Shown here: positions 18,310-52,019 of the stretch, piece by piece
How positions within the stretch are numbered: position 1 is the first letter of the stretch
How the letters are laid out: the number at the start of each line of letters is the position of its first letter
Source: a virus
Taxonomy: Duplodnaviria; Heunggongvirae; Uroviricota; Caudoviricetes
Virus record (IMG/VR): IMGVR_UViG_2724679140_000011
Location: 1 to 52,019 of that record
DNA: 52,019 bases
Reading direction: 5' to 3' (one strand)
Program-made: the position numbers and the translations under genes
Notes under the pieces: model-generated
The model's input: the letters and a program-made list of their open reading frames with translations, nothing else
The model's database searches: none
Told to the model about the DNA's origin: nothing

Positions 18310-18401
18310 GCGGTGTTATAAAAGAGAAGTTTTTGTTACTGGAAGAATGATAAAATTCAAAAACTTCTCTATTGATTGTTTAAAAAATCGTCTAAATAAG
18401 A

Positions 18402-20984: not shown

Positions 20985-20985
20985 T

Positions 20986-22304: not shown

Positions 22305-22330
22305 TAAAAAATCCCGGTACTGGACCGGGA
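22305..22330 (-). terminator. rho-independent terminator after the delta gene
   Basis: tcccggtactggaccggga hairpin followed by T6 on the minus strand. Confidence 0.5.
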
Positions 22331-22352
22331 CTACGTGGGCGTATTTTGCTAA

Positions 22353-22625
22353 TCAGACAGGAATTAGCTGACGGCTTGACAGCTTTGACGCGGAGCCATA
22401 GCGGTTGAGAGTTTGCTGTTGTTTTTCTGGCATTTGTTCTTTGTCTGATTCCTGTTCATTGCGCCAAGGCTTCATAATTATCGTATCCACGCTTTCCAGA
22501 GCGGTAAATGTGCAGGAACATTCCAGATTCTGGCACTGATACCATGAGCGTTTAACCGATGGAGCTTCATAGGCGCTGGTTCTGGCGTGAGCGACCGTCC
22601 CACATTCAGGACACTTCAGGGCCAT
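22353..22625 (-). CDS. Ogr/Delta-family zinc-finger late transcription activator
   Basis: MALKCPECG...HARTS...YQCQNLECSCTF matches the Ogr/Delta CxxC...CxxC pattern; perfect aaggagg SD before this ATG. Confidence 0.8.
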   Translation of the reverse strand: MALKCPECGTVAHARTSAYEAPSVKRSWYQCQNLECSCTFTALESVDTIIMKPWRNEQESDKEQMPEKQQQTLNRYGSASKLSSRQLIPV

Positions 22626-22626
22626 A

Positions 22627-23181
22627 TCAGTACCCTCCTTTTTCATTAAGTCGGTTAAGGCGGGCCAGGAAAACTTTATGTTGTGCCGGGGTGAAACTGG
22701 TTGAAGCATCAGCGTACATTGATGCATCCACCGTTAATCCGGTTTCGTCGATAATGCTCTTGTATGCTGCTGAAATTACCGGAGTACGCACTTCCGTTTG
22801 TCGGGCTACAGCGGTTCGTAATATTTTCATTGCCGCCTCAAGCCCGTATGGAGCGCAAAGAAAAGGAGCCAGTGCGTCAGTGAGTGCATCACCATGCTCG
22901 CTCATGAAGTTTTCCGTTGCGCTTGTAACACAACTCTCCAGCACAATCTGGTGAGCATAAAGACCATCCCGTGCAGCACAGTTAATCTGCCATTCGAGGA
23001 CAGCAAGACGCTCACGAAGCTCCTCAAGCTGGCTGGCATATGCTGCCGGTTTTTCTTCAGTATTCAGCAGAGCCGCCAGACGAAGCTGGTAGGTACTTTG
23101 CGTATTACGTAGTGTCAGCCAGCTTTTTATCGCCGAGCGGTAATCGTTGAGAGCTTCCTGAGTAATGGTTCCGGCATTCAT
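22627..23181 (-). CDS. psu: Psu-like polarity suppression / capsid decoration protein
   Basis: 184 aa; HG.AL..ALAP and C-terminal FTPAQ..F segments resemble P4 Psu as recalled; adjacent to delta. Confidence 0.6.
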   Translation of the reverse strand: MNAGTITQEALNDYRSAIKSWLTLRNTQSTYQLRLAALLNTEEKPAAYASQLEELRERLAVLEWQINCAARDGLYAHQIVLESCVTSATENFMSEHGDALTDALAPFLCAPYGLEAAMKILRTAVARQTEVRTPVISAAYKSIIDETGLTVDASMYADASTSFTPAQHKVFLARLNRLNEKGGY

Positions 23182-23963
23182 TTCTTCTCGCCCCCTTTAA
23201 CCATGTCACGCTGTTTAAGCATCCGTGAACGCGCTGCAGGGCTGGGGGATTGTCTGGCATCCTGGATGGCTTTATCGTCCGCATAAATGCTGATCCCCGG
23301 CAGGGTAATATCATCCGTTGAAGATACGTTACAGGACAGTACCGGAGTGGTGAGTTGCTCGCTGATAAATTGCTTCAGCACACTTTCGGGGTCGTTTACG
23401 GTATGAACTACACCGATAACAGCAGAAGCGCTTCGGCCCAGAGTCATTTTCAACAGTCCAAGGATCTGAATAAGTTTCTGGCCGTGTTCCTTCATAAACT
23501 CATTCCAGAGCCACACTGCATGAGTTTCAATCAGGCGATTATGTTCGCTGATGTAGTGGTTTGCAGCATCCGCAGTTTTCCAGGGCAGGAATTCATTTTC
23601 TGCCACCTGAGCTGCCAGCAAATCTTCGAACTCATCCAGTGTTTCGCGTCCGAGGGCGATTTCTGCCCGCAGTTTTTTCATGCGTGGTGTCATATTTCCC
23701 TGATTCTCACGAAACAGGTTTCGCCATTCATCATTAAGCGCCTGCGTTTCCGTTTTTGTATCTTCCTGACGTTTACGGATAGTTTCAATCATTGCAGCAG
23801 CTTCAGTTTGTTTTCGCCGTTCTTCCTGCCAGACAGCTTTTGCTGCCTTAACTTTTTCCACCGCTTCGCGAATTTTCGGCGGGAGGGAGGATGTAATGTT
23901 TGCATCAGAGATCTGGTTAACAGTAGTCATGAATGCTCCGGTAGTGTTTTGTTGTCGTGTCAA
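23178..23963 (-). CDS. Sid-like coiled-coil protein (size-determination scaffold), tentative
   Basis: 261 aa, charged coiled-coil-like central region; first gene of the sid/psu/delta-type operon. Confidence 0.4.
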   Translation of the reverse strand: MTRQQNTTGAFMTTVNQISDANITSSLPPKIREAVEKVKAAKAVWQEERRKQTEAAAMIETIRKRQEDTKTETQALNDEWRNLFRENQGNMTPRMKKLRAEIALGRETLDEFEDLLAAQVAENEFLPWKTADAANHYISEHNRLIETHAVWLWNEFMKEHGQKLIQILGLLKMTLGRSASAVIGVVHTVNDPESVLKQFISEQLTTPVLSCNVSSTDDITLPGISIYADDKAIQDARQSPSPAARSRMLKQRDMVKGGEKK

Positions 23964-24089
23964 TTGTGCCGATGCCCATACAAGCGCACTACCGAGGGGG
24001 ATTGTGTCAGTGACAGAACAATGACCTTGTTCTGGCTAGCCAGAGAAATGTGTCATGTCTGATCTTCAACTTTCCTTTAATAAATACTA

Positions 24090-24300
24090 TTCACTACTGT
24101 TCACTTTGATAAAAAAATTGATAATACAGCTAGTTAAGAGGTGAAGGGTTGACAAGGCAGTATTCAGTGACTGTTCATGAGTGTTCATCGGAAGGTAGCG
24201 TGATTTATGATTTTTTTTCATCAAAAGTGAAATTTTTATTCCGAATGATTATTTCATTATTGTTCCTCACAACTATTCACCACTCTTCAGTAGTATTCAA
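24090..24300. repeat. iteron cluster of TGTTCAC-like repeats (P4 ori/crr-type, tentative) within a late promoter region
   Basis: tgttcac, tattcac, tgttcat and gtgaag copies read repeatedly in both orientations. Confidence 0.45.
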
Positions 24301-24843
24301 CAGATGATGAAATAGACGATTTTTCTTTGCCGGGAAATAACATGATTCCCCCCTTTCCCTGGTGTTGCATTTCAATCTGATTTTTATAAAACTAGAACTG
24401 CTCGGTCTTTTATGAATTTATTTGGATATATTTTTAGGTTAAGAATGCGTGGTTATTGATTTTATGCGGTTCTAATTCTTCTGAGCTTGATGCAATTCAT
24501 GAGTATATCCTGAAGTTAGGTTTGCAATGTAAAGCCATATGTAGAAATTGTGCATCCCTGCTGAATGGGTTGCGGTTTCAGTACCATTAAGTTCTATGAC
24601 TTATGGGGTAGTAACCCCTGGATGAAAGTTAGTTCCTATTAATGTCCCTGTATTTATAGTTCGCAGACATAATATCTATCATGCCATTTTATGTGGTTTG
24701 ATATAGTTTTAAATTCCATTAAATCAATATGTGACGCTAAATAAATAATGGGTGCGTAAGCGAGAAATATATACATAATAAGGAACTACCTGAATCCGGG
24801 GGGATTTATCCGGACTGATGAAGGAATTAAAGAGGGTAGATAA

Positions 24844-25104
24844 ATGCATGATATTTCTGTTTCTGCGCCAGCTCCGGCTGCGCCATTATTTCCTGTGCTG
24901 AACCAGCATGAGCGATTTTTACGTCTTCCCGAGGTGATGCATTTATGCGGCTTGTCCCGCTCAACTATATACGACCTGATAAGCCGCGATGCTTTCCCGA
25001 AGCAGATCCCGCTTGGTGGTAAAAATGTTGCCTGGGCACAGTCAGAGGTAAGCGCATGGATGGCGGATCGTATAAGTGCCCGCGGACGGGGATGTGATGC
25101 ATAA
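24844..25104 (+). CDS. AlpA/Vis-family small DNA-binding regulator
   Basis: [48 protein letters not shown] is an AlpA-type HTH. Confidence 0.7.
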
Positions 25105-25655
25105 TGATGCCTGAACGCATTAATCCCCATTTTTCTGGCTTGCATCCTGCAGTCATTTCCAGGTATAGTTTTTCCGCTGCCGCAAAATCGGCAGCCGGAA
25201 TTGGCGTTCCGCGAAACTCAATGGCGACACCAGACGCGCCAAGCGTCTTTTTTTTCGTCGAAGCTCTGGCACACCCATTTTCCAGGCTGTGGTGTTTATG
25301 CGTACACCGTGGTTCTTTCGAGATAATGGCAGTCCGGGCGGGGCAGCCTTCGGGCTGGCCGGTATCCATTGAGGCCGGTTACGCCAACCCCGTTCGGGCT
25401 GCCACCAGTGAAATTGGCGTTTCCGGTGGTAGCAATAACCGCTACTCAATGGAGGCTGCCATCATGGCTACAACCCTCACCCCGTTTTACCCGCAATATG
25501 TCTTTGTGCTTGCCGCAATCCGCCGTGCTGACACTCAACCCCGCATCTGTATGCTTCGCACCGTGGCCTGCGATGAGCGCTTTGCACGCCTTTCGCTGGT
25601 CCGTGATTATGTGCTCTCCCTTTCTGCACGGCTGCCTGCCGGGGAGGTGATGTGA
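25104..25655 (+). CDS. hypothetical protein (P4 early region; start uncertain)
   Basis: ORF in GC-rich region; several overlapping frames, weak call. Confidence 0.3.
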
Positions 25656-25879
25656 TGAATCACGCCGCAATTTCTTATGACGATATTGTCCGCCTCAAGC
25701 ATCTTCGTAACGTGGGGGAATTTGTCACCGGAATGGCTGTTCTTCAGGACTGCTATGAAAAACCTGCAGGTGCTCAATGTGAGCAACTGGTTTCCCTGAT
25801 TTATCTGATGACAGAACAGCTTGATGGCGTGGTACAGCGTTGCCAGGATGACCTGATGAACAAGGAGGTGGTGCAATGA
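25652..25879 (+). CDS. hypothetical small protein
   Basis: Start overlaps upstream stop. Confidence 0.35.
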
Positions 25880-26199
25880 AATCACGCACTCTTCCCCTCT
25901 CACTTCGGCTGGCGTTATATCGCCGCGCGGTTGCCTGCGCCTGGCTGAGTATCTGCCATCAGCACAACCGCCACCTGCAGCTCACTCTGGATGAAATTGA
26001 AACCGCCATTGCCCGTGAGCTTGAAGGTTTTTATCTGCGACAGCACGGGCAAACAAAAGGCATGGAAATCGCCTGCGCCCTGCTTTCAGACCTGATGGAA
26101 TCCGGTCCTCTAATGTCCTGCCCCGCACTCTCCCAGCTCGGAATAGCCGTAATGGATGAGTTATGCGTCCGTCACATTATAAAGCCGGTTTTACACTGA
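25876..26199 (+). CDS. hypothetical small protein
   Basis: Start overlaps upstream stop; precedes alpha. Confidence 0.35.
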
Positions 26200-28547
26200 G
26201 GGAGAACTGCATCATGTCAGGAATGAAAGTCAGTCAGGCCGTGAAGGCTGCCCGCGGTCACTGGGCGCGGATTTTGCCAGCGCTGGGTATGAACATACTG
26301 AAAAATCGCCATCAGCCTTGTCCGGTCTGCGCCGGTAAAGATCGTTTTCGCTTCGACGATCTGGAAGGACGTGGAACATGGTTCTGCAACCAGTGCGGGG
26401 CTGGGGACGGTTTAGCGCTTGTCAGCAAGGTACTGAATGTGGATATCAGTGAAGCAGCAGACAGGATACATGGACTGACACATAGTCTGTCTTCAGCCTC
26501 TTCTGGAGTCTGGACGTCAACCGCAGATACAGATGGCGGGAAACAGGCGGCAGCAGCACTTGCCGCGCGACTACTGCAAGCCTCGCGTGAATCTGCCGGA
26601 AATACTTATCTTACACATAAAGGTTTCCCGGAGCATATTTGCCATGAGCTGACTTCAGGTCATAAAACCGGTGGGGTGATGTTCCACCCCGGTGATTTGA
26701 TCGTCCCGCTCTATAACGCTGACGGGGAACTGGTGAATATTCAGCTTATCAGTGGCAATGGTAGCAAGTGTTTTCTTAAAGGAGGTCAGGTTAAGGAGGC
26801 CTATCATCTGATAGAAGGGGGCGGGAGTTCTGTAAGAAGGATGTGGATTGCGGAAGGTTACGCCACGGCGCTTACCATTCGTCATCTGACAGGAGAAGCC
26901 GTCATGGTGGCATTTTCGTCGGTCAACTTTCTTTCTCTGGCCAGCGTTGCCCATAACAAGTATCCGGGATATCAGTTAATTATTGCAGCGGACCGCGATC
27001 TGAATGGTTCAGGCCAGAACAGGGCTGAAACTGCTGCAAAAGCGTGTCAGTGTGACATTGTGCTGCCACCGGTTTTTGGTGACTGGAATGATGCGCTTAC
27101 CCAATACGGAGAGGAATCCACCCGGAAGGCAATTCTTGAGGCTTTGAAGCCACATAACGCCAGTCCTTTCGACACAATGAGTGAAGCAGAATTCACAGCG
27201 ATGAGTGTCAGCGAAAAAGCTCAGAGGGTTCGGGAGCATTACAGGGATGCACTGGCGGTTGATCCGAACGGGCAGCTTTTATCCCGCTACGAGTCTGGAG
27301 CGTGGAAAGTGATTTCTCAGTCAGATTTTGCCCGAGATGTCGCAGCCCTTTTCCAGCGCCTCGGTGCACCGTTTTCCTCAGGAAAAATTGCTTCACTGGT
27401 GGAAACATTAAAGTTAATTGTTCCGCAGCAGCAAAATCCGGCACGTCATCTGATCGGTTTTCGTAATGGCGTCCTCGATACGCGAACAGGGCTGTTTAGT
27501 CCGCACTGTAAAGAGAACTGGCTGCGTACCCTGTGTGAAGTCGATTTCACGCCACCGGTAGAGGGGGAAACGCTTGAAACTCATGCCCCGGCATTCTGGC
27601 GCTGGCTGGACCGGGCTGCCGGACACAAGCCAGAAAAACGCGACATTATTCTTGCGGCGTTATTTATGGTGCTGGCGAATCGCTATGACTGGCAGCTCTT
27701 TCTGGAAGTGACTGGCCCTGGTGGAAGTGGCAAAAGTATTCTGGCTGAAATTGCGACCATGCTTGCTGGAGAGGATAACGCCACCTCTGCGACCATTGAA
27801 ACGCTGGAGTCCCCGCGAGAACGTGCGGCTCTGATAGGTTTTTCTCTTATTCGCCTGCCTGATCAGGAGAAGTGGAGCGGCGACGGCGCCGGGCTTAAGG
27901 CTATAACTGGTGGCGATGCGGTATCGGTGGACCCCAAATATCAGAATGCTTATTCAACACATATTCCGGCGGTTATCCTGGCCGTAAATAATAATCCTAT
28001 GCGCTTCACTGATCGCAGTGGTGGTGTGTCCCGCAGGAGAGTTATTCTGCATTTTCCTGAGCAGATAGCACCGGAAGAACGCGATCCGCAGCTGAAAGAT
28101 AAAATTGCACGAGAACTGGCTGTGATTGTTCGCCAGCTCATGCAGCGTTTCAGCGATCCGATGAGCGCCAGAACATTGCTTCAGTCGCAGCAGAATTCTG
28201 ATGAGGCTCTCACCATCAAGCGTGATGCTGATCCAGCATTTGATTTTTGTGGCTATCTTGAGGCATTACCTGACACCAACGGCATGTTTATGGGGAACGC
28301 CAATATTGTCCCACGCCAGCCACGTACCTACCTTTACCATGCCTACCTCGTATACATGGAGGCTAATGGATATAAAAACACCCTGAGTCTTACGATGTTT
28401 GGCAAAGGGTTGCCAGTCATGCTGAAGGAGTACGGGCTACATTATGAGAAACGGCGAACTAATCAGGGAATGCAGACTAACCTCACTTTAAAAGAGGAAA
28501 GTAATGCAGACTGGCTACCCAAGTGCGATGAGCCAACAATCAAATAA
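26163..28547 (+). CDS. P4 alpha-like primase-helicase (zinc ribbon + TOPRIM + D5-type helicase); probable start 26214
   Basis: [53 protein letters not shown], Walker A GPGGSGKS. Confidence 0.85.
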
Positions 28548-29026: not shown

Positions 29027-32000
29027 TCAGAACGACCAGTTCACACCAGCTACCCCGTTCCACGGGGATTCCACACCGGCACCATGGCTATACCCCACCC
29101 CAAGATGCCCGCTTAACGTACTGCTGAATGAGGCTTTAATACCTGCCTGGTATATTCCACGTCTGCCCGACAAATCATTGACGAAATTACCGTCACTATT
29201 CACTTTCACCCGGTTATCATCGACAAATTCTTTGCGCACAGCCGCCTTCAGCCACGGCTCAACTTCCATACCGTTCCCCAGACGCATGTTGTAACTCAGC
29301 GTTGCACCCAGTTCACGATATAAACTGCGGGTATCGACTGATTTCGATTCCATGCCATTGGATAAATGATATTCAGGGTTATCAGCGGTGAACCCCCGTT
29401 AACGATGCATACGGCGTCAGGTTCCAGTTACCATCGGTAAATCGCATCCCGGTTTCAATGTGACCGCCCAGCCCGTTGCTGCGATAACTGCCGTTGGCGG
29501 CTCCACCGCTGCCAACCGTGGAGTCGCGAGCTTCGGTACCTGCTAATACCAATAAATTACCGCCATTTTCCAGCAACATATTGGTCGCTAAATTGCCGGA
29601 AATGGAAAAAGTGCCGTACTGGTGAGTACCGCTGATTTCAATACCGTTAGCCGTGCTCGTCTGGAGAGCGGCACCGCTGTTCTGGACGATATCTGTCGCT
29701 TTGCCATTATCGTTAACTGTCAGCGTACCGCCTTCATTGATCTTTGTTTTTATTGCCTCTCCGTTAGCTGAAACTGTTTGTATTCCGCCGTCGTTAATCG
29801 TTGTCTCATTCGCCACCCCCTCGACGATTTGTTCGCCGCCGGTGAGCGTCGTGCCTGTCGCAGTGGCTTTTGTTTTGACGATCTCCCGTCCGCCCGTATT
29901 GACCTGTGTTTTGTCAGAAGAGGTGTCTGACTCCATGGTTAACACGCCGCCATTTGCCAGCAGGATATTGTTCGCCGCACCCTGCTCGATGCTGAACGCG
30001 ACGCCATCCGCGCGTGTTCCTGTGACCCGCGTCGCCCTGGTGGTTGCAACCAAAGCGTCCTGGCTACTCTGCTGTATCCCCGTTGCGCTGCCTTTCTCCC
30101 GCACATCGAGTGTGCCGCCGTCATTAAGCACCGAGTTTTCAGCCAGACCGCCCTCATTAACTACCTGTGAACACCCATTAATAATGGAACCTTCCGCTGT
30201 CCCGTTTGCCATAATTTGTTGTAGGCCAGAGACGATATCGGTATTGATTGCCTTACCATAATTCTGAACGGTTTGCGTGCCACCATTGATGTGTGTTTTC
30301 TCTGTTGACCCACCATCAACAATTTGTTCACCACTTTCGATATTTGCCTCAGTGGCTAATCCATATACCGTTTGCTTGCCACCTTTGATATTTGCTTTAT
30401 CAGAAGTGGCACTGGCATATATTGTTTGGGTGCCAGCACTATTGAGTACAGTGCCAACATCTTTTCCATAAACATCCATTTTGCCGTTGGCATTAATAAT
30501 CGTATCAACTGCCCGGGAACCAGTGACGACTGTTAATGAGCCAGCGTTTTCCAGCACTACATTTTTAGCTTCTGAATTCCTGATGTAGAAAGCATCACCA
30601 TAACTGTTGGTTCCTTCGATAAGGGTTCCGGAAGTTGTGGAAGCAATTAATGCGCCGCCGGATTGTTGCTCAACATGCTTAGCCTCACCACCGTCCTGAA
30701 CCTCCAGAACGCCACCATTATTAAGTCTGGTGGTATCTGTTTTAGCCTCCTTCTGGACAATCAGCTTACCGCCAGCATCAACGGTAGTATTTTTCGCCGA
30801 GGTTTTAGCCACTACCGTCAGTTCGCCGGTATTTTCCAGCACAACATAATTAGCCTCCCCTCCGGTAATAGTGAAGTGAGAGAGCTTGTTGTATCCTTCA
30901 ATATCAGTCCCTGCGCCCGTGTTGGCAACTAAAGCACTGCCCGTCTCCTGGTTAACCCCATGTGCAATACCACCGGTATAGACAATCAGCGAGCCTCCGG
31001 CGCTAATATTGCTGCCAGTTGCCGTACCATCTTTCTCAACAACCTGCCGGCTCCCGGAGGATATAATTGTCGTGTCAGCTTTCCCGCCGCTCTTGATATT
31101 TTGCGTTCCGCCGTTGATATTGGTACCCGTGGCAATACCATGATTATTAATATTCTGTGTACCACCATTGATTATGGTATTGGTCGCGTTTCCGGTAACA
31201 TCCATTACCCCGCCGTTATCTATTCGGGTCGCATCAGCTTTAGCATTCGTTAAAACTGACATTGTTCCTTTATCTTTAATAATCGTCTTGTTTGCCGAAC
31301 CATATGCGTTTATGTCTAAATGACCACCGTTTTCCAGCAACACATTGTCTGCCACGTGATTGTGGATGGAGAATGCACCTTCACTATTCGTACCGCTCAC
31401 CGTCGTACCGTTAGTGTTTGTTTTTAAAATTGCACCATCGTGCTGGGTAACATTTGTTGCCGTACCACCACTAACATCAAGCACGCCACCGGAATAAACT
31501 TCAATAACATCCGAGGAGCTGGTGTAATCAACAATTTGCGTACCACCAGAATAGATCTGAGTATTTTTGCCGTTGACTTATTATTCAGAGACTGAGTTCC
31601 ACCTTCAATCGTCGTGTCCAGCGCATGGCTTTCATATACTCTTTGCTCACCGCCATTTTTAATGGTGGTTGTTCCTACTGTGCTCTGTTCAACATACTGT
31701 CGTCCACCATTTATGATTGTGTTCGTTGCAATACTTCCTTGCGTGATGTCCTGATAACCGGACTTATTTATCGTTGTACCATCAACATGCCCCTGAGTTG
31801 TTACTTTCTGCCCTCCACCATCAATGATGGTTCCATTCGCAGTCCCCCCACTTATGTGTGAATTACCACCCTTAATTGTCGTTCCATTGCTGATACCACC
31901 TGTATAAACGTCCTGATTGCCACTGTCGATTATCGTACCGGTGGAAATGCCCCCGTCATGAATTGTCTGTCTTCCTCCGTTAATGGTTGTATTATTAGCC

Positions 32001-32293
32001 TGCCCCACAAAATTGTTATGACTTCCTACATCTTGATATCCACCCGATTCAATAAGACTTCCATTAGATACCCCGCCATGAACATTCTGCTGGCCATGGT
32101 TGATAATATGAGTGTTATTTGTTGTACCTCGTTCATCTACTCTTTGGCTGCCATCTACAGTCTCATCGTTTACCACACCAATAACATCAGGAGTGAAGGC
32201 CGTCATCCCAGGCGGGGCATATATCAAGGCAGATATCAATAAGGAAAGTACTGAGCGGCGACAATAATGGGGACTGGTCCTGTTCATAAATTT
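29027..32293 (-). pseudogene. autotransporter adhesin (AIDA/YpjA-like) disrupted into three frames
   Basis: Extended signal peptide MKFMNRTSPHYCRRSVLSLLISALIYA; repetitive GGTQ/T-I-x-GG passenger; C-terminal barrel ending NWSF; frame breaks near 31424-31484 and 29354-29381. Confidence 0.7.
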
Positions 32294-32699
32294 CATCCTC
32301 TGAAAAGTGAATACTGAGTAGCGTTTAAGCGACCTTAGCTCTGCTGCAACATCAGCCCACAGGCACCAGACCAGGGGATTCATCCTGAAGAGACAGCGCA
32401 AGTGTATTGTGTTCACCGCTCATCAAAGACATCATGATGAAATGATGATATTCCACATAAGAAAGAAGCATTTTTTAAACGCAGTGCGCTGAAGTATGGT
32501 TGGATAAAAAAGTCAATCTATTCAGGGAATACGGGGGTATTCTTTTCTTTCGACAATCAGGCCGTCGGCAAAATAAAATGATTTACATAATCGTTTCTGA
32601 TGAATATCTTCTGCTCACATAAAAATAACACAATAACTTTGAGATCGCAGATTCTTTTACTTTTACAGCATTCGTCCCCCCATTGTTGGGCAAATATAG

Positions 32700-37689: not shown

Positions 37690-39294
37690 TTACTGTTCGA
37701 CCAGACATTTTCCCCATAAAGGTCGTATCGAGTATCTATCTTCGCTATATGGATTTATTTTATTTTTTTCCCTCTGTGCTATCAGCAACGTGTCGATCTC
37801 ATCCTTAATAATGTGTTGAACTGCTTGACGGTAACGGTTAAGCGAAGTGTCACTGATATCTTGTGGAAGTTGTAGACTGCTATCTGCCTTGACGAGTTCA
37901 TTCACACCATCTTTAATTTTGCGTCCCTGACCATCAGGTATACCTTCATTCAGATCATAGCCTTTCAGTCCTGCAAGACGAATATTCACGTCAATCTTTT
38001 CTGTACGTTTCTTTTTGTTACTTACCAACAGAATTTTATTGGCGTTATACCATTTTTCAAATGTTTCCAGTTGTTTCATGATGTTTGTGAAGTTATTCAG
38101 TTCGCTCCTGAATTCAATAGATTTTCTAATTTCACGCTCTTTTGCATCAATGTTTATTCCTGGATAATTTATTTCCCTTTTTAACGGTTCTATGTATGCC
38201 TGTTGCAGGCAACCAGCAAGATTCATTGCTGCATCCTGCAGGGTATTGGTATAAATCAGTTTCAGAAGTTCATCGCGCTGTATAGTGATTTGACAATAGT
38301 CTTTTTCCCATGCGGTGGTGTTTTCAATCGTGTCACTTTCATCGGAAATAATTGTTGTGAATTTCCAGGTGTAACGAATAAAATCATTTCCTTTAAAATA
38401 TTGCACTAATTTATTTAACCATTCATATATTTCCAGAGCATAAAGTTTAACGTATCCATCATATATTATCTTTGTTGCATTTTTGTTGGCTAGCGAAAAC
38501 ATTTTGTCCACGAATTCTGTACGCCCGATTGTTAGCAATTGTTTTCTAAGTTTACTCACATCGTTAGTATCTGGTTTCTCACAATTCCAGGGACTTTTGT
38601 ATTCATTTTCAAAAGGAGAAAGCCATTCAGGAATCTCTGTTTTTGAGTGATAGCAGTTGTTAATAGCCAAACCAAGGGTTCTGGCAAGTATCGCTGATTC
38701 ATCAATTTGATGGTATCGGTTCAGTTGTTCCAGTAATTCTTTAGTACATGAGTGCGCAACAGAAAGATCCTGATGGCAATATCCTTGTCGAACCAGAGCG
38801 GGAAGTGGTGAGCAATGAGCTTTACAATCTGTCAGAATATTGAACAAATCGTTTCTGACGAATTCTTCCATCTCAGGTGTTTTCCAGCCACCACTATTTT
38901 GGCCGACAAATTTTGCTGTTGGTTCCCTGTTCATATCTCCCCAGGTTTTCAGGCTGACGAGTCTGTTATCAAAACCATTGTATAAATGGCACATAACCTG
39001 AAAAGCAGCATACAGCTCTTTAGATAGTGGATTATCGGTCTCACCTATGGAGTAGTCCTCTCTATTTTGCTCTAAAATATTTTGTAGTTTTGTGTTAGCG
39101 CGTAATGCCGAGAGAATCCGATGTTGTTCATCAAACCAGGGACGATATTCTGGATCCAGATACAATCTGCGTGCTTTGAAAATGAGTAGAAGCAACTGTT
39201 CGGAAACAGCTTCATGTATGTGGGGAAACGGCATGGAGGTGCCAGATAAAACACGATAGTACGGGTGGTTTGTTTTTACCTTTTTAGTTACCAT
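37690..39294 (-). CDS. hypothetical protein, 534 aa, AT-rich orphan gene
   Basis: Long ORF in AT-rich DNA with no recognisable motif; integrase-proximal position. Confidence 0.65.
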   Translation of the reverse strand: MVTKKVKTNHPYYRVLSGTSMPFPHIHEAVSEQLLLLIFKARRLYLDPEYRPWFDEQHRILSALRANTKLQNILEQNREDYSIGETDNPLSKELYAAFQVMCHLYNGFDNRLVSLKTWGDMNREPTAKFVGQNSGGWKTPEMEEFVRNDLFNILTDCKAHCSPLPALVRQGYCHQDLSVAHSCTKELLEQLNRYHQIDESAILARTLGLAINNCYHSKTEIPEWLSPFENEYKSPWNCEKPDTNDVSKLRKQLLTIGRTEFVDKMFSLANKNATKIIYDGYVKLYALEIYEWLNKLVQYFKGNDFIRYTWKFTTIISDESDTIENTTAWEKDYCQITIQRDELLKLIYTNTLQDAAMNLAGCLQQAYIEPLKREINYPGINIDAKEREIRKSIEFRSELNNFTNIMKQLETFEKWYNANKILLVSNKKKRTEKIDVNIRLAGLKGYDLNEGIPDGQGRKIKDGVNELVKADSSLQLPQDISDTSLNRYRQAVQHIIKDEIDTLLIAQREKNKINPYSEDRYSIRPLWGKCLVEQ

Positions 39295-40363: not shown

Positions 40364-41110
40364 ATGATGAAACGTGTCTCTTTTTCTCTTGCAGAAACAT
40401 ATGAAGCTGATGTAATTAAAAAGTATCAGTATTTAAAAAAATGCTCATTTTCAGCAGCGATTAAAGAGTGTTTAAAGCTAGGGGCTCCTGTTTTAAACAG
40501 GATAAATGAAAATATTGCTGCTATAACTGATATAGAGGATAAGCTACGTCAGTTTTTTAATGAGGAACCATTTGTGCAACGGACAAAGCCTGAAATAACA
40601 AAAGGAGAGTTTTTTCATAGCATTTATAAATCGCATATCAAATATGAATATGATGTTCTCGATAGAAAGATATTTCCTCATGAAAGCACCAGAAATGCTA
40701 TGGGAGTTGCAGAGAAAAAGGGAATTAAAGAGAATGCGACCTTAATGCTGGAATATTATAAAGTTGAGAAGGCAATTTGTATTTACACGAACAGAAAAGT
40801 TTCCCATACCCTGAATTGTGCAGGAGGGTTTTATAAAACCATTCTGATTAAAACCAGTGTTTTTGGGGATTGTTTTTTTGACTTTTGCAATTCAGTTTGC
40901 CTGCCGATAGATGAGTTGATTGAGTATGGTACGAAAGAAACAGTGAGGCGACATCAGATTCGTAGTACAGGATTTTGTACTTTTCATATTCCGATTTTTT
41001 ATATCAACAATAAGGCTGTAATAGTGCCTGTTCTGAGAACAGAGGAAGTTTCACAAAGTTCCAGAACAGGTGGAGATGTTATTATTATTAACCCATTTGA
41101 AGATGAATGA
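40364..41110 (+). CDS. hypothetical protein, 248 aa, N-terminal RHH-like segment
   Basis: aaaggag SD; N-terminal KRVSFSLAETYEADVIKKYQ resembles a ribbon-helix-helix start. Confidence 0.55.
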   Translation: MMKRVSFSLAETYEADVIKKYQYLKKCSFSAAIKECLKLGAPVLNRINENIAAITDIEDKLRQFFNEEPFVQRTKPEITKGEFFHSIYKSHIKYEYDVLDRKIFPHESTRNAMGVAEKKGIKENATLMLEYYKVEKAICIYTNRKVSHTLNCAGGFYKTILIKTSVFGDCFFDFCNSVCLPIDELIEYGTKETVRRHQIRSTGFCTFHIPIFYINNKAVIVPVLRTEEVSQSSRTGGDVIIINPFEDE

Positions 41111-43819: not shown

Positions 43820-44536
43820 TTGGGGAGACATTTAATGTTTGGCCATCTGCTACGATACTTTAGTTTCTGTAAAAAAGATTTATTAGTATTTCATCCTGAA
43901 TCTGATTATTCAGATAATTTACGTAAAGCCTTCTCTTTTACAAAAAGGCTGGGATTTAATGAAGAATGGAATGGAGTCACAAAAAACAAAGAATACGATT
44001 ATCAGGATGTATTCAGTCATGTCTGTCTGCAGTCTGGCGTGACAGACTTTTCCGCTTCAGCAGGACAATGCTTAAAGTGGAGTCATTATTTTCAGCCATA
44101 TTTTGAGAATATCCTTGAATGTCGGGTATGGGTTACCGTCGGACAACTCTGGAAACAGGAAAGATTTATTTACAATCCGTCAGTTGCGGATTTTCAGCGC
44201 TGGTCTGAAAAAGGGATTCAGCCTGAGGATTTCAGACATCACTCAGGGTTTAACTTTCATGCGTGGTTGACGACGGAAAATGGTGTGATTGTGGATGTTT
44301 CCTTTATGAGTACGTTATCGCGGCGATTACCTGAACACCTGAGTGAAGTCAGTGGAAGTGTGATTATTGGCCCGCCAGAGACGGTTCTTCCTGAGCATAA
44401 ATATGTTCCCATGATTGTCGGTCAGAGGATTGTTGAGAAAATAGAAAAACGCTCTTTCATTGATTTTCTGGCGCACGACGATATTGATTTATATACAGTG
44501 CCTGCAATCCTGGTTCCGGTATGGAAAGAATGTTAA
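43820..44536 (+). CDS. hypothetical protein, 238 aa
   Basis: ORF upstream of the CDI locus. Confidence 0.5.
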   Translation: MGRHLMFGHLLRYFSFCKKDLLVFHPESDYSDNLRKAFSFTKRLGFNEEWNGVTKNKEYDYQDVFSHVCLQSGVTDFSASAGQCLKWSHYFQPYFENILECRVWVTVGQLWKQERFIYNPSVADFQRWSEKGIQPEDFRHHSGFNFHAWLTTENGVIVDVSFMSTLSRRLPEHLSEVSGSVIIGPPETVLPEHKYVPMIVGQRIVEKIEKRSFIDFLAHDDIDLYTVPAILVPVWKEC

Positions 44537-45338
44537 AGCACGGAATAACACTATGCACTTACCGTTTTCCGGAACTCAGCTTGTTATCTGAGCGGTCAAC
44601 AGAGCAGTCTTTTAGTGTTTGCACCTGGTTGCCACTAAACCGGAGTCATTTATCAGAAGTATATTTTCATGGAAGGATATTGTCAGCGCCAGTGATATAA
44701 GACAGTAATGCGGATAACCGTCCCGCATAAACACCACCCAGATTTCCTCAACACTGGTCACGGTGACAAGCGCACCATGATCATCTCTGTATCGCTGAAT
44801 CAGGAGTCTCAGCCTCCTGATGTGTTTTGTTAATTTCCTGTTTTTACTAAAAATTCCCACTCCTTCTTTCATTGCATTTTGTCGTGCTCTTCCTTCATAT
44901 CCTTCCCGTTTTCCAGAAATCACTTAAATGCTGTTGAATCGTCACGCATTGCAATTTTCAATGACTGAAATCAAAAAATGATATTTTTTTAGCTAACCAA
45001 CTGTATTAAAAGCATTCAGTGGAATAATTTTCTGCACTTTTCCATTAATTATGGTTATAAGTTTTGCGATATGCTGTTTTTGCGATATTCGGCAGAATAA
45101 AGATCTGTTCATTTGTGTTATATCGATCGATAAATCTGTCATATTGCTGTCGCTCAGATCATTATTCTATAATGATCAAAATTAAGTCAATTCTGAACGG
45201 ATTTGTTACTCAGCATTCTGGTACCGGTTGGTGTGGGTAAATACCGGAAGGGCGGTAGCGTACCACTGCAAAACATGGTGGGAGGTATCGTCAGGAGGCT
45301 GGTGATTGTTGGTATGGCATGAATAAAAGGTTTTTCGT

Positions 45339-47078
45339 TTGACTGGAAAATTATGTTGCAGGAACGAGAGGGCTGAGGAACAAAGCGTATTCCGGCGCTG
45401 TCCGTCCTTGCTGTCACTGACACTGATGTCTGTTTTACTATCGCCTTTATCTCTTCAGGCAGCGGATATCCGGCGTAGTGGAGAGGATACATTTATCATT
45501 CAGCAGCAGCGTCAGGAAGCCCTTGAGCAACAACTGACGCCTTCAGCCCCTGATGTTCGCCTTTCTGCACCTGGCTCTTTTGCCCATAAGATTAATTTTC
45601 CTGTTGAAACGCCCTGTTTTCAGATTAAACAGACGGAACTGAAGGGGGCTGATGCGTTACCACACTGGCTGCCTTTACAAAAAATCGCCAACGGGGCGGT
45701 CGGGCATTGCCTGGGGGCGAAAGGAATTAATCTGCTGATGAGTACATTGCAGAACCGTCTGGTCGATCATGGTTATGTCACCACCCGTGTTCTGGCACCT
45801 TCGCAGGATTTAAAAAGCGGTATCCTCCGGCTGGTTATTATTCCCGGTGTTGTGCGACATGTGCGTCTGACACCGGACAGTGATGACTATATTCAGTTGT
45901 ATTCCTCATTCCCGGCACACGAAGGTTCTCTGCTGGATTTACGGGACATTGAGCAGGGGCTGGAGAATATGCAACGACTGCCGGGTGTGCAGGCTGATAT
46001 GGAAATTGTGCCCGGTGAGCAGCCAGGGGAAAGTGATATTCTTATTACCCGTAAACAGGATAAATACTGGCGACTGGGGTTTTCGCTTGATGATTCAGGT
46101 ACCCGCAGCACAGGGCGTTATCTCGGTGGTATAACATTTTCTCTGGATAATCCTTTTTCCCTGAGTGACCTGCTGTATGTTTCTGCCACCCATAATTTTC
46201 CACATTACGGGGGTAAGGGCAGTAAAAACTACACGGCCCATTACTCTGTGCCTTTCGGTTACTGGCAGTTTTCCGTCACCGCCAGTGATTACGATTACCA
46301 TCAGACGGTAGCTGGTGCGGTTGAGGATTACCAGTACAGTGGCGAGAGTCAGAATCTGGGCATGCAGCTGAGCCGGGTACTGCACCGTAACGGGACGCAG
46401 AAAACGGTGCTGACTTACGATGTTCAGGCCCGCAGGTCGCGTAACTACATTAATGATACGGAAATCCAGGTGCAGCGCCGGCAGACAGCGGCCTGGCGAC
46501 TTGGGCTGCAGCACCGTCATTATATTTCTCAGGCCACACTGGATGCTGGTGTCAGCTGGCAACGGGGAACCCGCTGGTTTGGTGCACAGCCGGCACCGGA
46601 GGAAATCTTCGGTGAGGCAACGGCGCTCAGTAAGATCCTGCAGATGAATGCATCCTTTAATCTGCCCTTTACACTGGCAGAGCAGCCCTTCAGTTATTCC
46701 TTCCGGTATCAGCGCCAGCTGAGCAATACCCCGCTGACCCCACAGGAACAGTTTGCCATCGGTAACCGCTGGACGGTTCGTGGTTTTGACGGGGAGCGAA
46801 CGCTGAATGCCAGTAACGGCTGGTATATCCGCAACGACCTGGCCTGGCGTACGCCACTGCCGGAGCAGGAGTTATATCTGGGAATGGATTACGGCGAGGT
46901 GGGGGGAGCCGGCAGTGAATATCTGGTGGGACGTCATCTGGCCGGTGGTGTTGTGGGGCTGAGGGGGCAACTGTTCAGTACGGATTATGACGTTTTCATC
47001 GGTCGTCCGTTTTCAAAGCCGGCGGGTTTTATGACGAGTGATGTGACAGCCGGTTTTAATCTGTTCCGGGATTTCTGA
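45339..47078 (+). CDS. cdiB: two-partner secretion outer-membrane transporter (TpsB; ShlB/FhaC/CdiB family); start uncertain between 45339 and 45426
   Basis: RR-containing signal peptide, POTRA-like region, C-terminus ending GFNLFRDF typical of a beta-barrel. Confidence 0.85.
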
Positions 47079-47087
47079 GAAAGTTTC

Positions 47088-47615
47088 ATGCGTAACGGGA
47101 AATATGACGTTCTGAGTCCCCTGTATTCCGGTGAGCCGGTCAATGAGGCGGAAGTCCTGGGGGCGGCCGTCTGGTTGTGGATGCACTCCCCCCTGCATCG
47201 TGATGCGCCACTGCATACCCTGCCGGACCTGCTGCTGCCGGTGATTAAGCACCGACAGTATGTGGTGGCAACAGAGCAGGGGCGACCGGTTTTCTTCATG
47301 AGCCAGGCCTGGCTCAGCCCGGAGGCAGAGGCGCGTTATCTTACGCAGCCGGCAATTCTCATGCCTCAGTCGGACTGGAACAGCGGCGACCGGATGTGGG
47401 TCTGTGACTGGGTTGCCCCTTTTGGACACACTCCGGATATGAGTCGTCTTGTCCGGCAGGATATTTTTCCCCGTCTGTGCTGGCGTTCGCTGTACCACCG
47501 TGGGCAGCAGACCGGGTTACGGGTGATGAATTTCCGGGGTGCACAGGTCAGTCGTGAAGAGGCGCGCCAGTGGCGTGTGCAGCACCCGCTTGCTGTGGAT
47601 GTGCCGGAGAGATAA
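47088..47615 (+). CDS. cdiC: HlyC-family toxin-activating lysine acyltransferase (CdiC-like)
   Basis: VWLWMHSPLHRD...SGDRMWVCDWVAPFGH closely parallels HlyC VSWLW..SPLHRNW...SGDRKWFIDWIAPFG as recalled. Confidence 0.85.
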   Translation: MRNGKYDVLSPLYSGEPVNEAEVLGAAVWLWMHSPLHRDAPLHTLPDLLLPVIKHRQYVVATEQGRPVFFMSQAWLSPEAEARYLTQPAILMPQSDWNSGDRMWVCDWVAPFGHTPDMSRLVRQDIFPRLCWRSLYHRGQQTGLRVMNFRGAQVSREEARQWRVQHPLAVDVPER

Positions 47616-47630
47616 GTCAGGTTTATCAGA

Positions 47631-50600
47631 ATGAACAGAAATTGTTACCGCATTATTTTTAACAAAGCCCGGGGAATGCTGATGGTGGTGGCAGATATTG
47701 CCCGTTCCGGTCGCGCCGGTACATCACTGTCCTCCCGCACAGGATATCCACACAGGCAACGTATCTGCCGTGTCACGCCGCTTGCATTCTCTTTGTGGCT
47801 GGCTTCGGGGATGGTGCATTCTGTCAATGCTGCAGGCATTGCCGCAGACCATGGCGCACCGGGGCATCAGCAGCCCACGATTACGCAGACGGCCAGCGGC
47901 ATTCCGCAGGTGAATATTCAGACGCCTTCTGCCGGTGGGGTTTCACATAACACATACAGCCAGTTCGACGTCGGTAACAAGGGTGTCATTCTGAATAATG
48001 CCCATAACAATGTGCAGACTCAGCTGGGTGGCATGGTGGCCGGGAACCCGTGGCTGGCGAAGGGAGAGGCCAGAATCATTCTTAATGAAGTGAACAGTCG
48101 CAATCCCAGCCAGTTGAACGGTTTTGTTGAGGTTGCCGGTAAAAAGGCGCAGGTGGTGATTGCGAACCCGGCCGGCATCAGTTGCGACGGGTGCGGTTTT
48201 ATTAATGCGAACCGGGCCACGCTGACCACGGGGCAGCCTCAGATGAAAAACGGCAGTCTGACCGGATTCAGTGTTGAACGTGGTGAGATTCAGATTACGG
48301 GCAAAGGGATGGATGCCTCGCGCACGGATTATACCGATATCATTGCCCGGTCAGTGAAGATTAATGCGGGTATCTGGGCGCAGGACCTGAAAGTGACCAC
48401 CGGACGTAACAATGTGGATATCGCGCACGGGCAGACTGAGAAAAAAGCCGCTGATGCCTCTTCGCAGCCACAGGTGGCGCTGGATGTGTCCAGCCTTGGT
48501 GGAATGTATGCCGGAAAAATTCGCCTTGTCGGTACGGAAACGGGGGTGGGGGTTCGTAACGCCGGTCATATTGGTGCGCAGGCAGGGGCGGTTACCCTGA
48601 CGGCTGACGGACGTATTGAAAACAGTGGCAGTATCAGTGCGAAAACGGATGTGCATCTGGCGACAACCCGGGAGCTGCATAACAGTGGTTCTGTTTATGC
48701 GGGGCAGGATACGCAGATACAGAGTAATGGTGTATTCACCCATACAGGCTCTGTGGCATCACGTCGCAACACCCGGATTCAGACAGCGCGTCTGACCGGC
48801 GGTGAGCGGAGTCTGCTGGCCGCCGGGGTGAAAGATGACGGACGTCTGGCGGCAGCGGGCAACCTGACTGTCAGTACCACCGGCGAACTGGCGGCACACG
48901 GACAGGTTCTGTCCGGTGGGGACATGCAACTGAAGGGGCAGGGGCTGGATTTAAGCAACAGCCGGATACAGGGACAACATACTGAGCTGGATGCAACCAG
49001 TGGAAATCTGTCCACACAGAATGTGCAACTGAGCGCCGGCACGCTTTCCGCCCGGACTGCCGGGCACTTCAGCAATAATGGTGGCACGATAAATGCCGAC
49101 ACACTGCAGATATCGGCACAGAGCCTGTCAAACCACAGGGGTAAACTGATTCAGACGGGAACAGGGGATTTTTCACTGAACCTGCCGGGAGGTGTGGATA
49201 ACCGGGAAGGGCTGCTTGCGGCAAATGGCGCGGTGCGCCTGGATGCACTGAGCCTTGATAATCGCAGGGGGAAAGTGCAGGCGGTGCAGTCAGGCAGTCT
49301 GCAGGTGAAGACAACCGGTGCCGTGGACAACCAGCAGGGAAGTCTCACCGCCAGCCGTGATGTCCGGCTTAACGCTCAGGCGCTGAATAACGACAACGGA
49401 CTGATTTCAGCTGCTGCCGGAACGGGCAGGATAAAAACACAGCAGGCTGTCAGCAATACGGAGGGACGAATGGAGTCCGCCGGCAGGCTGGGTATTTCGG
49501 CAGGGAGTCTGAATAACCACCAGGGTACGGTGGTGTCTGACGGGCTGTCCGTGACGCTGGATGGTGCGCTGGATAATACGTCCGGCAGACTGCTTTCACA
49601 GAAAACGCTGTCTGTGTCAGGCAGCGAACTGGTCTCTGATGATGGTCTGATTCAGTCCGGCAGTGACATGACGCTGGATGTACAGGACGGGGTACTCAGT
49701 AACCGGAACACGAAAACACGGGGTGGTATCAGCAGCGCCGGTACCCTGACAGTACGGGCTGGTATGCTGAATAACCAGCAGGGATTTATAGTGGGTCAGA
49801 AGGATATGACCCTGAACGCCGGAACGCTCGATAACCGTCAGGGCGTGCTGGGGAGTCAGGCGTCATTGCAGATATCGTCAGGTACGCTGATGAACCAGAA
49901 AGGCGCACTGAAGGCCGGGACGGATATGTTGCTGAGTGGTGGTGATGTCAGTAATCAGGAAGGGACGCTTGCCGCCGGCAGAGACCTGAATGCGCACCTG
50001 AATGTGCTGGAAAATCAGCAGGGGGCGGTGGTCAGCAACGGTAACAGCAGGCTTGATGTCACACGGTTTGATAATCAGGGCGGCAGACTGGTGGCACAGC
50101 AGTCACTGACCCTTTCCTCGACGGATATCATCAACGATGCCAGTGGCCTGATACAGAGTGGTGCATCGCTGAATCTCCGTGCTGACACACTGAGTAACCG
50201 TAACAGTGGTGACCGGGGCGGGGTTATCAGTCAGGGCCCGATGACGCTGAATGCCGGCACACTGGACAGCACTGCCGGTGTGCTTTTGTCGGGAGATGCT
50301 CTGTCCTTGACTGCAGGCGTGGTTAACAATACATCCGGTCAGGTGGTGGCAAACGGTCTGCTCGGCTGGAACAGCCAGGCGCTGAACAATCAGTCCGGTC
50401 TTATTCAGGGGAGGGGTATCAGCATTAATACCGCAGGCCAGACGCTGGATAACAGACGCGGTACGCTGAACAGCCTGCAGGAACTGACTGTCAGTACCGG
50501 AGCAATGGATAACCGGGGCGGGACCGTGGGGGCGAAAACGACAGCTGACCTGAGCACCACCTCGCTGGATAACCGTGAGGGGGGCCGGCTGGTCAGTGAA

Positions 50601-52019
50601 GGTGAACTCCGTCTGCATACGGGAGGTCTGCAGAACAGCCACGGACAAATACAGTCTGTGGGCGACATGTTGCTCAACAGTGTACGGGGCGTTGTGGACA
50701 ACGTCTCTGGTCTGATTCGCAGTGGTTCCGCCATTACGCTGAACGCCCTGCAGTTTATCAATCGCCACACGCAGAATACCGGCCAGGGGCTGGAAGCGCA
50801 GACAATACACATCACGACGCAGGACCTTGATAACCAGGAGGGCAGTATTCTGGCAGACAGGGCGCTTACGGTTATGGCAGACAGGACGCTCAGTAATAAT
50901 GACGGCGTCCTATCTTCCGGCGCGACATTGTCTGTCAGTGGCCGTCAGCTGGCGTTTTCGAACCGTGACGGCGTGGTTAAGGCCGGGCAGTCAGTATCTG
51001 TGGATGCCGGTCAGCTCGGTGGTGACGGGAAGCTGCTTTCGCTGGGCAATATGACGCTGAAAAGTAACACAACGTTCAGCAACAGTGGTCAGACTATTGC
51101 GAACGGAAACCTTACGCTTTCCGTTAATGGCGATGTCTCTAATACCGGCAGCCTGCTGGCAGGCAGCCGGCTTGACCTGAACAGCATCCGCCTTGAAAAC
51201 ACAGAGAAAGGTGAAATCAGTGCCGGGCAGACCTGGCTTAACGTGACGGACACACTGCTGAACCGTGGGCTGATTGACGGGAAATATACGCGTCTTCAGG
51301 CGAACACCCTGACGAATTCCGGTACCGGGCGAATCTACGGCGATGCTGTTGGTGTCTGCGCTGCCACATTTAATAATCTGGAAGAAAATGGCGTGGCGGC
51401 GACGCTGGCCGGGCGTGAGCGTGTGGACTTAGGGGTACAGACCCTGAATAACCGGACGCACAGCCTGATTTACAGTGCAGGTGATATGCATACTGGTGGC
51501 ATGCTGGATGCGAATGGTGCCGCCACGGGGAAAGCCGGTGTACTGAATAATCACAGTGCCACTATTGAAGCCGCCGGATATCTGGTACTGAGTGCCGGAC
51601 AAATCAATAACGTCAATGACCATTTCACCACGGAGCGCGTGGTGGTTTCCACGGAAAAGGTGACTGAGTATCAGCTCAGCGGCTCAGATAAACGCTGGAG
51701 CGCCGGTGAACCGGGCGTTTATGTGGATAACGATTCCAGTAACTCACTGAAAAAACTGCATACACCGGAAGGCGCCAGAGATAAATTCACGCAGTACGAT
51801 TACACCCGTACCGTGGAAGAAAACCGGGTAAAAGAATCCGACCCGGGAAAAATTCTGTCCGGTGCCGGCATGACGATTGTGGCAGACAAACTGCTTAATG
51901 ATAAGAGTCAGGTTGTTGCAGGCGGCCTGCTGACCATTCCGTCAGGAAGCGTGGAAAATGTCAGTGTCAGTGGCGAGCGGCATGTTACGGACTCAGGAAC
52001 ATCCACGTATTATTACCGT
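47631..52019 (+). CDS. cdiA: TpsA/CdiA-like filamentous exoprotein, 5' portion (runs off window end)
   Basis: Extended signal peptide MNRNCYRIIFNKARGMLMVVADIARSG; TPS domain with VIANPAGIS; long beta-helical repeats; open frame to position 52019. Confidence 0.9.
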   Translation, partial: MNRNCYRIIFNKARGMLMVVADIARSGRAGTSLSSRTGYPHRQRICRVTPLAFSLWLASGMVHSVNAAGIAADHGAPGHQQPTITQTASGIPQVNIQTPSAGGVSHNTYSQFDVGNKGVILNNAHNNVQTQLGGMVAGNPWLAKGEARIILNEVNSRNPSQLNGFVEVAGKKAQVVIANPAGISCDGCGFINANRATLTTGQPQMKNGSLTGFSVERGEIQITGKGMDASRTDYTDIIARSVKINAGIWAQDLKVTTGRNNVDIAHGQTEKKAADASSQPQVALDVSSLGGMYAGKIRLVGTETGVGVRNAGHIGAQAGAVTLTADGRIENSGSISAKTDVHLATTRELHNSGSVYAGQDTQIQSNGVFTHTGSVASRRNTRIQTARLTGGERSLLAAGVKDDGRLAAAGNLTVSTTGELAAHGQVLSGGDMQLKGQGLDLSNSRIQGQHTELDATSGNLSTQNVQLSAGTLSARTAGHFSNNGGTINADTLQISAQSLSNHRGKLIQTGTGDFSLNLPGGVDNREGLLAANGAVRLDALSLDNRRGKVQAVQSGSLQVKTTGAVDNQQGSLTASRDVRLNAQALNNDNGLISAAAGTGRIKTQQAVSNTEGRMESAGRLGISAGSLNNHQGTVVSDGLSVTLDGALDNTSGRLLSQKTLSVSGSELVSDDGLIQSGSDMTLDVQDGVLSNRNTKTRGGISSAGTLTVRAGMLNNQQGFIVGQKDMTLNAGTLDNRQGVLGSQASLQISSGTLMNQKGALKAGTDMLLSGGDVSNQEGTLAAGRDLNAHLNVLENQQGAVVSNGNSRLDVTRFDNQGGRLVAQQSLTLSSTDIINDASGLIQSGASLNLRADTLSNRNSGDRGGVISQGPMTLNAGTLDSTAGVLLSGDALSLTAGVVNNTSGQVVANGLLGWNSQALNNQSGLIQGRGISINTAGQTLDNRRGTLNSLQELTVSTGAMDNRGGTVGAKTTADLSTTSLDNREGGRLVSEGELRLHTGGLQNSHGQIQSVGDMLLNSVRGVVDNVSGLIRSGSAITLNALQFINRHTQNTGQGLEAQTIHITTQDLDNQEGSILADRALTVMADRTLSNNDGVLSSGATLSVSGRQLAFSNRDGVVKAGQSVSVDAGQLGGDGKLLSLGNMTLKSNTTFSNSGQTIANGNLTLSVNGDVSNTGSLLAGSRLDLNSIRLENTEKGEISAGQTWLNVTDTLLNRGLIDGKYTRLQANTLTNSGTGRIYGDAVGVCAATFNNLEENGVAATLAGRERVDLGVQTLNNRTHSLIYSAGDMHTGGMLDANGAATGKAGVLNNHSATIEAAGYLVLSAGQINNVNDHFTTERVVVSTEKVTEYQLSGSDKRWSAGEPGVYVDNDSSNSLKKLHTPEGARDKFTQYDYTRTVEENRVKESDPGKILSGAGMTIVADKLLNDKSQVVAGGLLTIPSGSVENVSVSGERHVTDSGTSTYYYR

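Follow-up and report, generated by a model that had tools for sequence, protein, structure and literature searches.

What does the three-gene locus at the end of a viral sequence record encode, and what lies past the base at which the sequence stops? The stretch analysed here (the window) comprises positions 1 to 52,019 of the IMG/VR record IMGVR_UViG_2724679140_000011, and the locus occupies its last part, from 45339 to 52019, with the genes cdiB, cdiC and cdiA in that order on the + strand. Class IV CdiA effectors, which act in contact-dependent growth inhibition (CDI), are defined by a diverged region of FHA-1 (filamentous haemagglutinin) repeats and receptor-binding domain, together with a cdiC gene between cdiB and cdiA (Halvorsen et al. 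2021, mBio, PMC8510554). We conclude, with a probability of about 0.9, that the region is the 5′ part (about half to two-thirds) of an Escherichia coli class IV cdiB–cdiC–cdiA(–cdiI) operon, that it carries essentially the STEC4 allele, and that it sits on an island in an array of mobile elements at ssrA.

Three genes and a published counterpart

The three proteins of the locus were searched against Pfam and NCBIfam (TIGR models), and PADLOC was used for defence genes. The first gene, cdiB (45339..47078, +), is an open reading frame (ORF) of 579 amino acids that encodes an Omp85/TpsB outer-membrane transporter (Pfam ShlB, 8.4e-110) with POTRA domains (POTRA_2, 2.4e-22; POTRA_3, 1.4e-17). It is followed by cdiC (47088..47615, +), a 175-amino-acid ORF for a toxin-activating lysine acyltransferase (Pfam HlyC, 6.3e-32), and by the N-terminal part of cdiA (47631..52019, +), the frame of which runs to the end of the window without a stop and covers 1463 of about 2940–3050 codons. 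The domain scores of all three proteins are far beyond chance level; searches of CdiB and CdiC against NCBIfam returned nothing except one sub-threshold BamA match. The original prediction, made from the sequence alone, had placed a TpsB transporter, an HlyC-family acyltransferase and a TpsA/CdiA exoprotein consecutively on one strand, and each of the three is found at its place with Pfam support. Only 9 nt separate cdiB from cdiC and 15 nt separate cdiC from cdiA, a close spacing that is consistent with a single operon. No stop codon or frameshift was found in cdiB, cdiC or the 4.4 kilobases (kb) of cdiA within the window.

CdiC scores 110.6 bits against the Pfam HlyC profile (PF02794; cut-off 25) and covers profile positions 1–127 of 127. 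Its sole match in the PDB is the acyltransferase ApxC (4WHN, E = 5e-27), with which it aligns over residues 14–160 and shares SPLHR and DW.APFG motifs. The catalytic residues of CdiC have been named as His37 and Asp107 (PMC8510554); alignment of the 175-amino-acid protein to the catalytic residues of HlyC/CdiC, which had been proposed as a check, shows that both are kept, His37 within SPLHRD and Asp107 within VCDWVAPFG. In the assembly collection, 13,717 blocks list exactly this CdiC protein.

Within the window, cdiA encodes an extended signal peptide region (ESPR; residues 1–37, 47631..47741, +; PF13018, 1.2e-9), a two-partner secretion (TPS) domain that is recognised by CdiB (residues 68–330, 47832..48620, +; PF05860, 1e-57; TIGR01901, the N-terminal FHA domain model, 2.9e-22) and a β-helical filament of FHA-1 repeats (residues 331–1327, 48621..51611, +; Fil_haemagg, 2.5e-42 in 5 stretches; TIGR01731, the model for the FHA 20-residue repeat, 1.4e-66 in 9 stretches), the limits of which were taken from PMC8510554. 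The last 408 bases encode the N-terminal half of the class IV receptor-binding domain (Val1328–Arg1463, 51612..52019, +), the beginning of which is marked by an exact match to the published primer CH4358 at 51613–51636. In STEC4 CdiA this domain runs from Val1328 to Pro1589 and the acylated residue is Lys1467 (PMC8510554); the window holds the first 136 of the 262 residues and is cut at Arg1463, with Lys1467 4 codons further on.

The cdiBCAI-STEC4 system was characterised from E. coli STEC_O31, and interbacterial killing that is reversible by cdiI has been demonstrated for this system (PMC8510554). We mapped the STEC4 oligonucleotide table of that study onto the window, using the primers as pieces of STEC_O31 sequence. 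All 6 non-mutagenic STEC4 primers that fall inside the window match it exactly: CH4087, CH4088 and ZR253, which are cdiC primers, and CH4802, CH4991 and CH4358, the last of which corresponds to STEC4-V1328. The mutagenic primers D107A, H37A and C1243S have 1, 3 and 1 mismatches, respectively, as expected of single-codon changes. As the C1243S primer fits the window better (1 mismatch) than it fits strains with Ser1243 (2 mismatches), the window has the wild-type Cys1243 codon. The published residue numbers also agree in the window (H37 and D107 in CdiC; C1243, V1269 and V1328 in CdiA). The class IV layout that had been recognised in the placement of the acyltransferase between transporter and exoprotein is thus borne out by the position of cdiC, its catalytic residues and the STEC4 primer matches.

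A full-length comparison was provided by the second class IV locus of E. coli strain W24 (L008), which can be used as a stand-in for STEC4 because primers ZR258 and ZR259 and the cdiI primer CH4869 match it exactly and its tip is Ntox25, the same as that reported for STEC4 (PMC8510554). Between 44900 and 52019 the window differs from L008 at 11 nucleotides in total. At the protein level, CdiB shows two amino-acid differences and CdiA residues 1–1463 show 4 from the corresponding proteins of both W24 loci (L007 and L008); within the receptor-binding domain (residues 1328–1463) the single difference from the STEC4-type L008 is at position 1398. Over the part that is present, comparison at this level indicates that the cdi module of the window is essentially the STEC4 allele.

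The conserved, non-coding leader 5′ of cdiB (44900..45338, +), which has a single difference from L008, at 45091, presumably includes the cdi promoter; a cloned STEC4 fragment that expressed itself started at primer ZR258, equivalent to window 44800–44822 (PMC8510554). The start of cdiB has three candidates. The annotated start is ATG 45426 (550 amino acids), the start proposed for STEC4 is a UUG that corresponds to window 45408 (556 amino acids; PMC8510554) and lies 18 nt 5′ of that ATG, and the earliest possible start is TTG 45339, preceded by an in-frame TAA at 45324. Initiation at TTG 45339 would yield a signal peptide of 42 residues, with Arg-Arg in its n-region and cleavage at LQA/AD. 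The 5′ extension shows one substitution only (V17L) across diverged copies, a degree of conservation that does not discriminate between the candidates; cdiB translation may begin at TTG 45339 and not at the UUG of the literature.

Full-length relatives and the 3′ end of cdiA

Any match to the region was found in 1,285 of 5,426 complete E. coli genomes, and 180 of the 5,426 cover at least 80% of it, with a best identity of 99.9%; on these matches, the locus is E. coli DNA. Relatives were examined in 12 fetched loci from 10 genomes (11 separate places, L001 and L010 being one locus of strain FORC_041), with 96.8–99.9% DNA identity to the window over the aligned stretch. FORC_041 (L001) differs from the window by 5 substitutions and 0 insertions or deletions over 6,681 bases. 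Immediately past Arg1463, where the window ends, L001, L005 and L007–L009 read ...YYR-IRKKGKDK, and L005 and L007–L009 agree with the published numbering further on (R1465, K1466, K1467, G1468, K1469, R1535, P1589 and S2159).

In all 12 loci cdiA is uninterrupted, with lengths of 2939, 2978, 2983, 3021, 3037 or 3050 amino acids. The relatives' CdiA proteins continue into FHA-2 repeats (Fil_haemagg_2, 3.4e-51) and a PT-VENN domain (Pfam, 4.2e-20 in L001), with the pre-toxin motif VENN in 11 of the 12 and IENN in L008. Two CdiA proteins compared end to end are near-identical and then unrelated beyond about residue 2600–2760, and at least 5 distinct C-terminal tips occur on the class IV scaffold among the 12 loci. 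A small ORF lies 3′ of cdiA in 4 of the 5 tip types. It encodes a 124-amino-acid CdiI_ImmP protein in five loci (Pfam, 5.5e-34) and a protein of 78, 84 or, after the Ntox25 tip, 158 very hydrophobic residues in others; in L009, the fifth tip type, no ORF was called 3′ of cdiA. A conserved body with diverging tips is, at the level of sequence, the signature of a polymorphic toxin/immunity system. The original prediction had put the toxin tip and cdiI beyond the window, and the relatives, 12 of 12 of which have PT-VENN and a variable tip, support that placement by inference. From the same comparison we infer that the 3′ half of cdiA in this genome is intact.

Which tip the window's own cdiA would carry can be weighed from its flank. 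The loci that share the 5′ flank of the window (RM10809-3 and L007; 99.9% identical) carry an ImmP-type module. Among the three C-terminal modules that were counted, the ImmP type is the commonest (96 genomes with at least 80% of the query), followed by a glycine-zipper type (50, by the same threshold) and the STEC4 Ntox25 type (6; at least 99% identity), although these counts span any scaffold, not class IV alone, and provide only a rough prior. We consider it unlikely that the 3′ end carries a toxin/immunity pair outside the five sampled tip types, or that the locus is a recombinant of a STEC4-like allele (Cys1243) with an RM10809-3-type flank; if either were true, the class IV effector of this strain would be an undescribed one. 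Strain W24 (CP141591.1) itself has two class IV cdi loci, L007 and L008, with identical CdiC and different ends, of ImmP type and Ntox25 type, respectively, and L008 has an orphan Ntox25-like C-terminal fragment of 173 amino acids 3′ of cdiI.

If the locus works as described for STEC4 (PMC8510554), CdiB would export CdiA across the outer membrane, and the FHA-1 repeats would form an extracellular filament tipped by the receptor-binding domain. CdiC, as an HlyC-type lysyl acyltransferase using His37 and Asp107, would place 3-hydroxydecanoate on Lys1467, and the lipidated receptor-binding domain would bind the phosphorylated heptose inner core of a neighbour's lipopolysaccharide. The C-terminal toxin would then be delivered, and CdiI would protect siblings. 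In the published system, killing falls about 100-fold when CdiC is lost or carries the substitution H37A or D107A, and export is unaffected (PMC8510554).

Points against, and other explanations

Several observations weigh against a functional STEC4-type locus. The window ends before the acylated lysine, the VENN boundary, the toxin and cdiI. Its CdiA allele, N1140/C1243/N1398, is identical to that of 0 of the 12 sampled loci, and primer ZR258 has 4 mismatches at window 44800–44822; to judge from these differences, the window probably comes from a strain other than STEC_O31. A consensus scan 5′ of cdiB found no + strand sigma-70 site, and shuffled sequence gave at least as many sites overall. 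In about 1,100 complete E. coli genomes, O157:H7 and CFT073 among them, the locus is reduced to remnants of 130–969 bp, and three full-length matches (H7, H8 and H20) are each in two pieces, split by IS66 or ISVsa5.

The last two observations belong to the only serious alternative reading, that this is a decayed copy in which the frames within the window are intact and cdiA is truncated, frameshifted or interrupted by an insertion sequence (IS) further on, such that no toxin is delivered. The surrounding island is also a mosaic with pseudogenes, such as a split ypjA. By contrast, cdiB, cdiC and 4.4 kb of cdiA are undamaged in the window, and in each of the 12 full-length relatives examined cdiA stays open as far as a toxin tip; we regard decay as decidedly improbable. 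The remnants are pieces of cdiB, and the 969-bp version also contains an internal piece of cdiA (for example, L014 4001–4969, from O157:H7 strain 3384). In O157:H7 the island around the remnant is the same: DUF4222 precedes it, and genes for an AAA-domain protein and a phosphoadenosine phosphosulfate (PAPS) reductase follow it; remnants in other genomes adjoin the type VI secretion system gene for VasL.

Public annotation gives a misleading impression of decay. In the RefSeq tables of the two genomes that were read, FORC_041 and RM10809-3, the Prokaryotic Genome Annotation Pipeline (PGAP) splits the intact cdiB and cdiA into ‘pseudo/incomplete’ haemolysin and haemagglutinin fragments (L001 14088–25406; L002 21565–32835). 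We rejected these flags as a sign of decay: the frames of L001 and L002 run unbroken, without insertions or deletions relative to the window, and the ‘pseudo’ labels are annotation artefacts, not lesions. The same paired RefSeq feature names recur among other best matches. GenBank gene calls for the locus yield single genes. Because RefSeq breaks the intact locus into misnamed pseudogene fragments, keyword surveys under-count class IV CDI.

Could CdiC instead be catalytically dead, or a redundant passenger beside a CdiA that works unlipidated? Class IV loci without cdiC or with a frameshifted cdiC have been reported, and unmodified CdiA-STEC4 retains significant activity (PMC8510554). The window's CdiC is nevertheless full length, matches the whole HlyC profile and keeps His37 and Asp107; the STEC4 cdiC primers fit it, the D107A and H37A primers differing at only 1 and 3 bases, respectively; and the target Lys1467 is kept in relatives. 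We therefore give this explanation very little weight.

Least credible of all, to the point that we give it almost no weight, is a two-partner haemolysin or adhesin (ShlA/HpmA- or FHA-like) with an HlyC-type enzyme as its activator and no polymorphic toxin or immunity gene: the window by itself does hold features common to haemolysin and adhesin TpsA systems (a TpsB, an acyltransferase and an N terminus with TPS and FHA repeats), and RefSeq uses the names ‘hemolysin secretion/activation protein’ and ‘filamentous hemagglutinin’, but relatives at 96.8–99.9% DNA identity all extend into FHA-2 repeats, PT-VENN and a variable tip, with a small ORF in 4 of 5 tip types, the sequence matches a system with demonstrated cdiI-reversible interbacterial killing (PMC8510554), and no RTX, haemolysin or type I secretion system domain was found in the three window proteins (Pfam and NCBIfam). 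An assignment to the ShlA/HpmA type, for which TpsA would lack VENN, a C-terminal toxin and an immunity gene, fails on the relatives, with their CdiA of 2939–3050 amino acids, FHA-2 repeats, PT-VENN and variable tips. An RTX operon of the hlyCABD type fails on the genes beside cdiC, which are those for a TpsB and a TpsA, with no RTX cytolysin and no pair of ABC transporter and membrane fusion protein. As far as the data allowed, neither of the findings that the original prediction had named as telling against it was encountered: a haemolysin- or adhesin-only gene without C-terminal toxin and immunity gene, or an acyltransferase without its catalytic His/Asp.

Island context and known systems

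The locus lies at the end of a series of mobile elements arrayed in tandem at ssrA, the gene for transfer-messenger RNA (tmRNA); the tmRNA gene itself is absent from the window. Positions 1–16412 form a prophage early region with an antiterminator, a toprim protein, a DEAD/DEAH helicase, two S24 repressor-like proteins, an excisionase and an integrase; the best matches of this region (99.7–99.9%) are all E. coli isolates from mice. The junctions of the tandem elements are marked by an exact 25-nt copy of the ssrA 3′ end (16413–16437) and by a degenerate copy near 28850. Between them, 16622–28547 looks like a P4-like satellite that carries defence cargo. It starts with a P4-type integrase (16622–17821) and ends with a P4-α-like primase/helicase (26163–28547), and in a low-GC block between the two is a complete Hachiman anti-phage pair (18402–21927, −) consisting of HamB (18402–20984, −; PADLOC HamB1, 1135 bits) and HamA (20986–21927, −; 450 bits; Pfam HamA, 2.9e-61).

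The island after the degenerate ssrA copy contains the split ypjA, another integrase, YagK/YfjJ-family genes and lastly the cdi module. The ypjA gene, for an EhaD-type autotransporter with AIDA repeats, consists of two overlapping ORFs (29382–31484 and 31424–32416, −) and is annotated as frameshifted in RM10809-3 too. Three further ORFs, of 534, 248 and 238 amino acids (37690–39294, −; 40364–41110, +; and 43820–44536, +), have no Pfam or PADLOC match and are conserved in RM10809-3 under the name ‘hypothetical protein’. The window as a whole has no match among the complete E. coli genomes; the highest coverage was 68% of 21000–45338 and 69% of 1–24000. A more diverged lineage (about 97% identical; L003, L004 and L011) has a Zorya type I defence system immediately 5′ of the cdi module, at positions 1–6949; its genes encode ZorA-like, MotB-like and EH_Signature proteins and an SNF2 helicase. 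The cdi module moves between contexts, given that in other strains it sits behind Zorya or in a FORC_041-type island. Carriage of the locus on mobile islands beside anti-phage defence cargo provides a context for the joint spread of competition and defence genes in E. coli.

A class IV cdiBCAI locus on nearly the same DNA has been known from experiments since 2021, including the unusual lipidation of its receptor-binding domain by an RTX acyltransferase that was co-opted for it, and the present one is a textbook polymorphic-toxin delivery system with little significance beyond its correct annotation. It shares with cdiBCAI-STEC4 the gene order, the cdiC primer sites, H37 and D107, the CdiA numbering and the six exact primers, and differs in the flank 5′ of about 44900, where the window is of the RM10809-3/L007 type: 44789–44899 has 28 differences from L008, and there is no similarity further 5′. 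Loci with the flank of the window carry a CdiI_ImmP-type tip, unlike the Ntox25 of STEC4.

More-distant systems can be set beside it by description. In Xenorhabdus doucetiae FRM16, the four cdiBCAI genes are arranged in the same way, cdiC again separating cdiB from cdiA; they are co-transcribed, and E. coli strains with the same locus type were noted in that study (Ogier et al., PLoS One 2016, PMC5131962). That locus belongs to another genus, with a CdiA of about 4,400 amino acids and a DNase tip, and no role was found there for CdiC (PMC5131962). The class I–III CdiA systems of E. coli (EC93/BamA, EC536/OmpC–OmpF and STEC3/Tsx) are likewise built of the two partners CdiB and CdiA, with an immunity gene and a polymorphic toxin delimited by VENN; they are set apart by the lack of cdiC, other receptor-binding domains, protein receptors and diverged FHA-1 repeats (PMC8510554). 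The acyltransferases of RTX toxins (HlyC, CyaC and ApxIC; PF02794; PDB 4WHN) resemble CdiC in the full family profile and in the conserved His and Asp motifs, whereas the substrate of CdiC is the receptor-binding domain of a TpsA/CdiA protein and not an RTX cytolysin, its gene is located in a type Vb operon and not in hlyCABD, and the acyl group reported for STEC4 is 3-hydroxydecanoate (PMC8510554).

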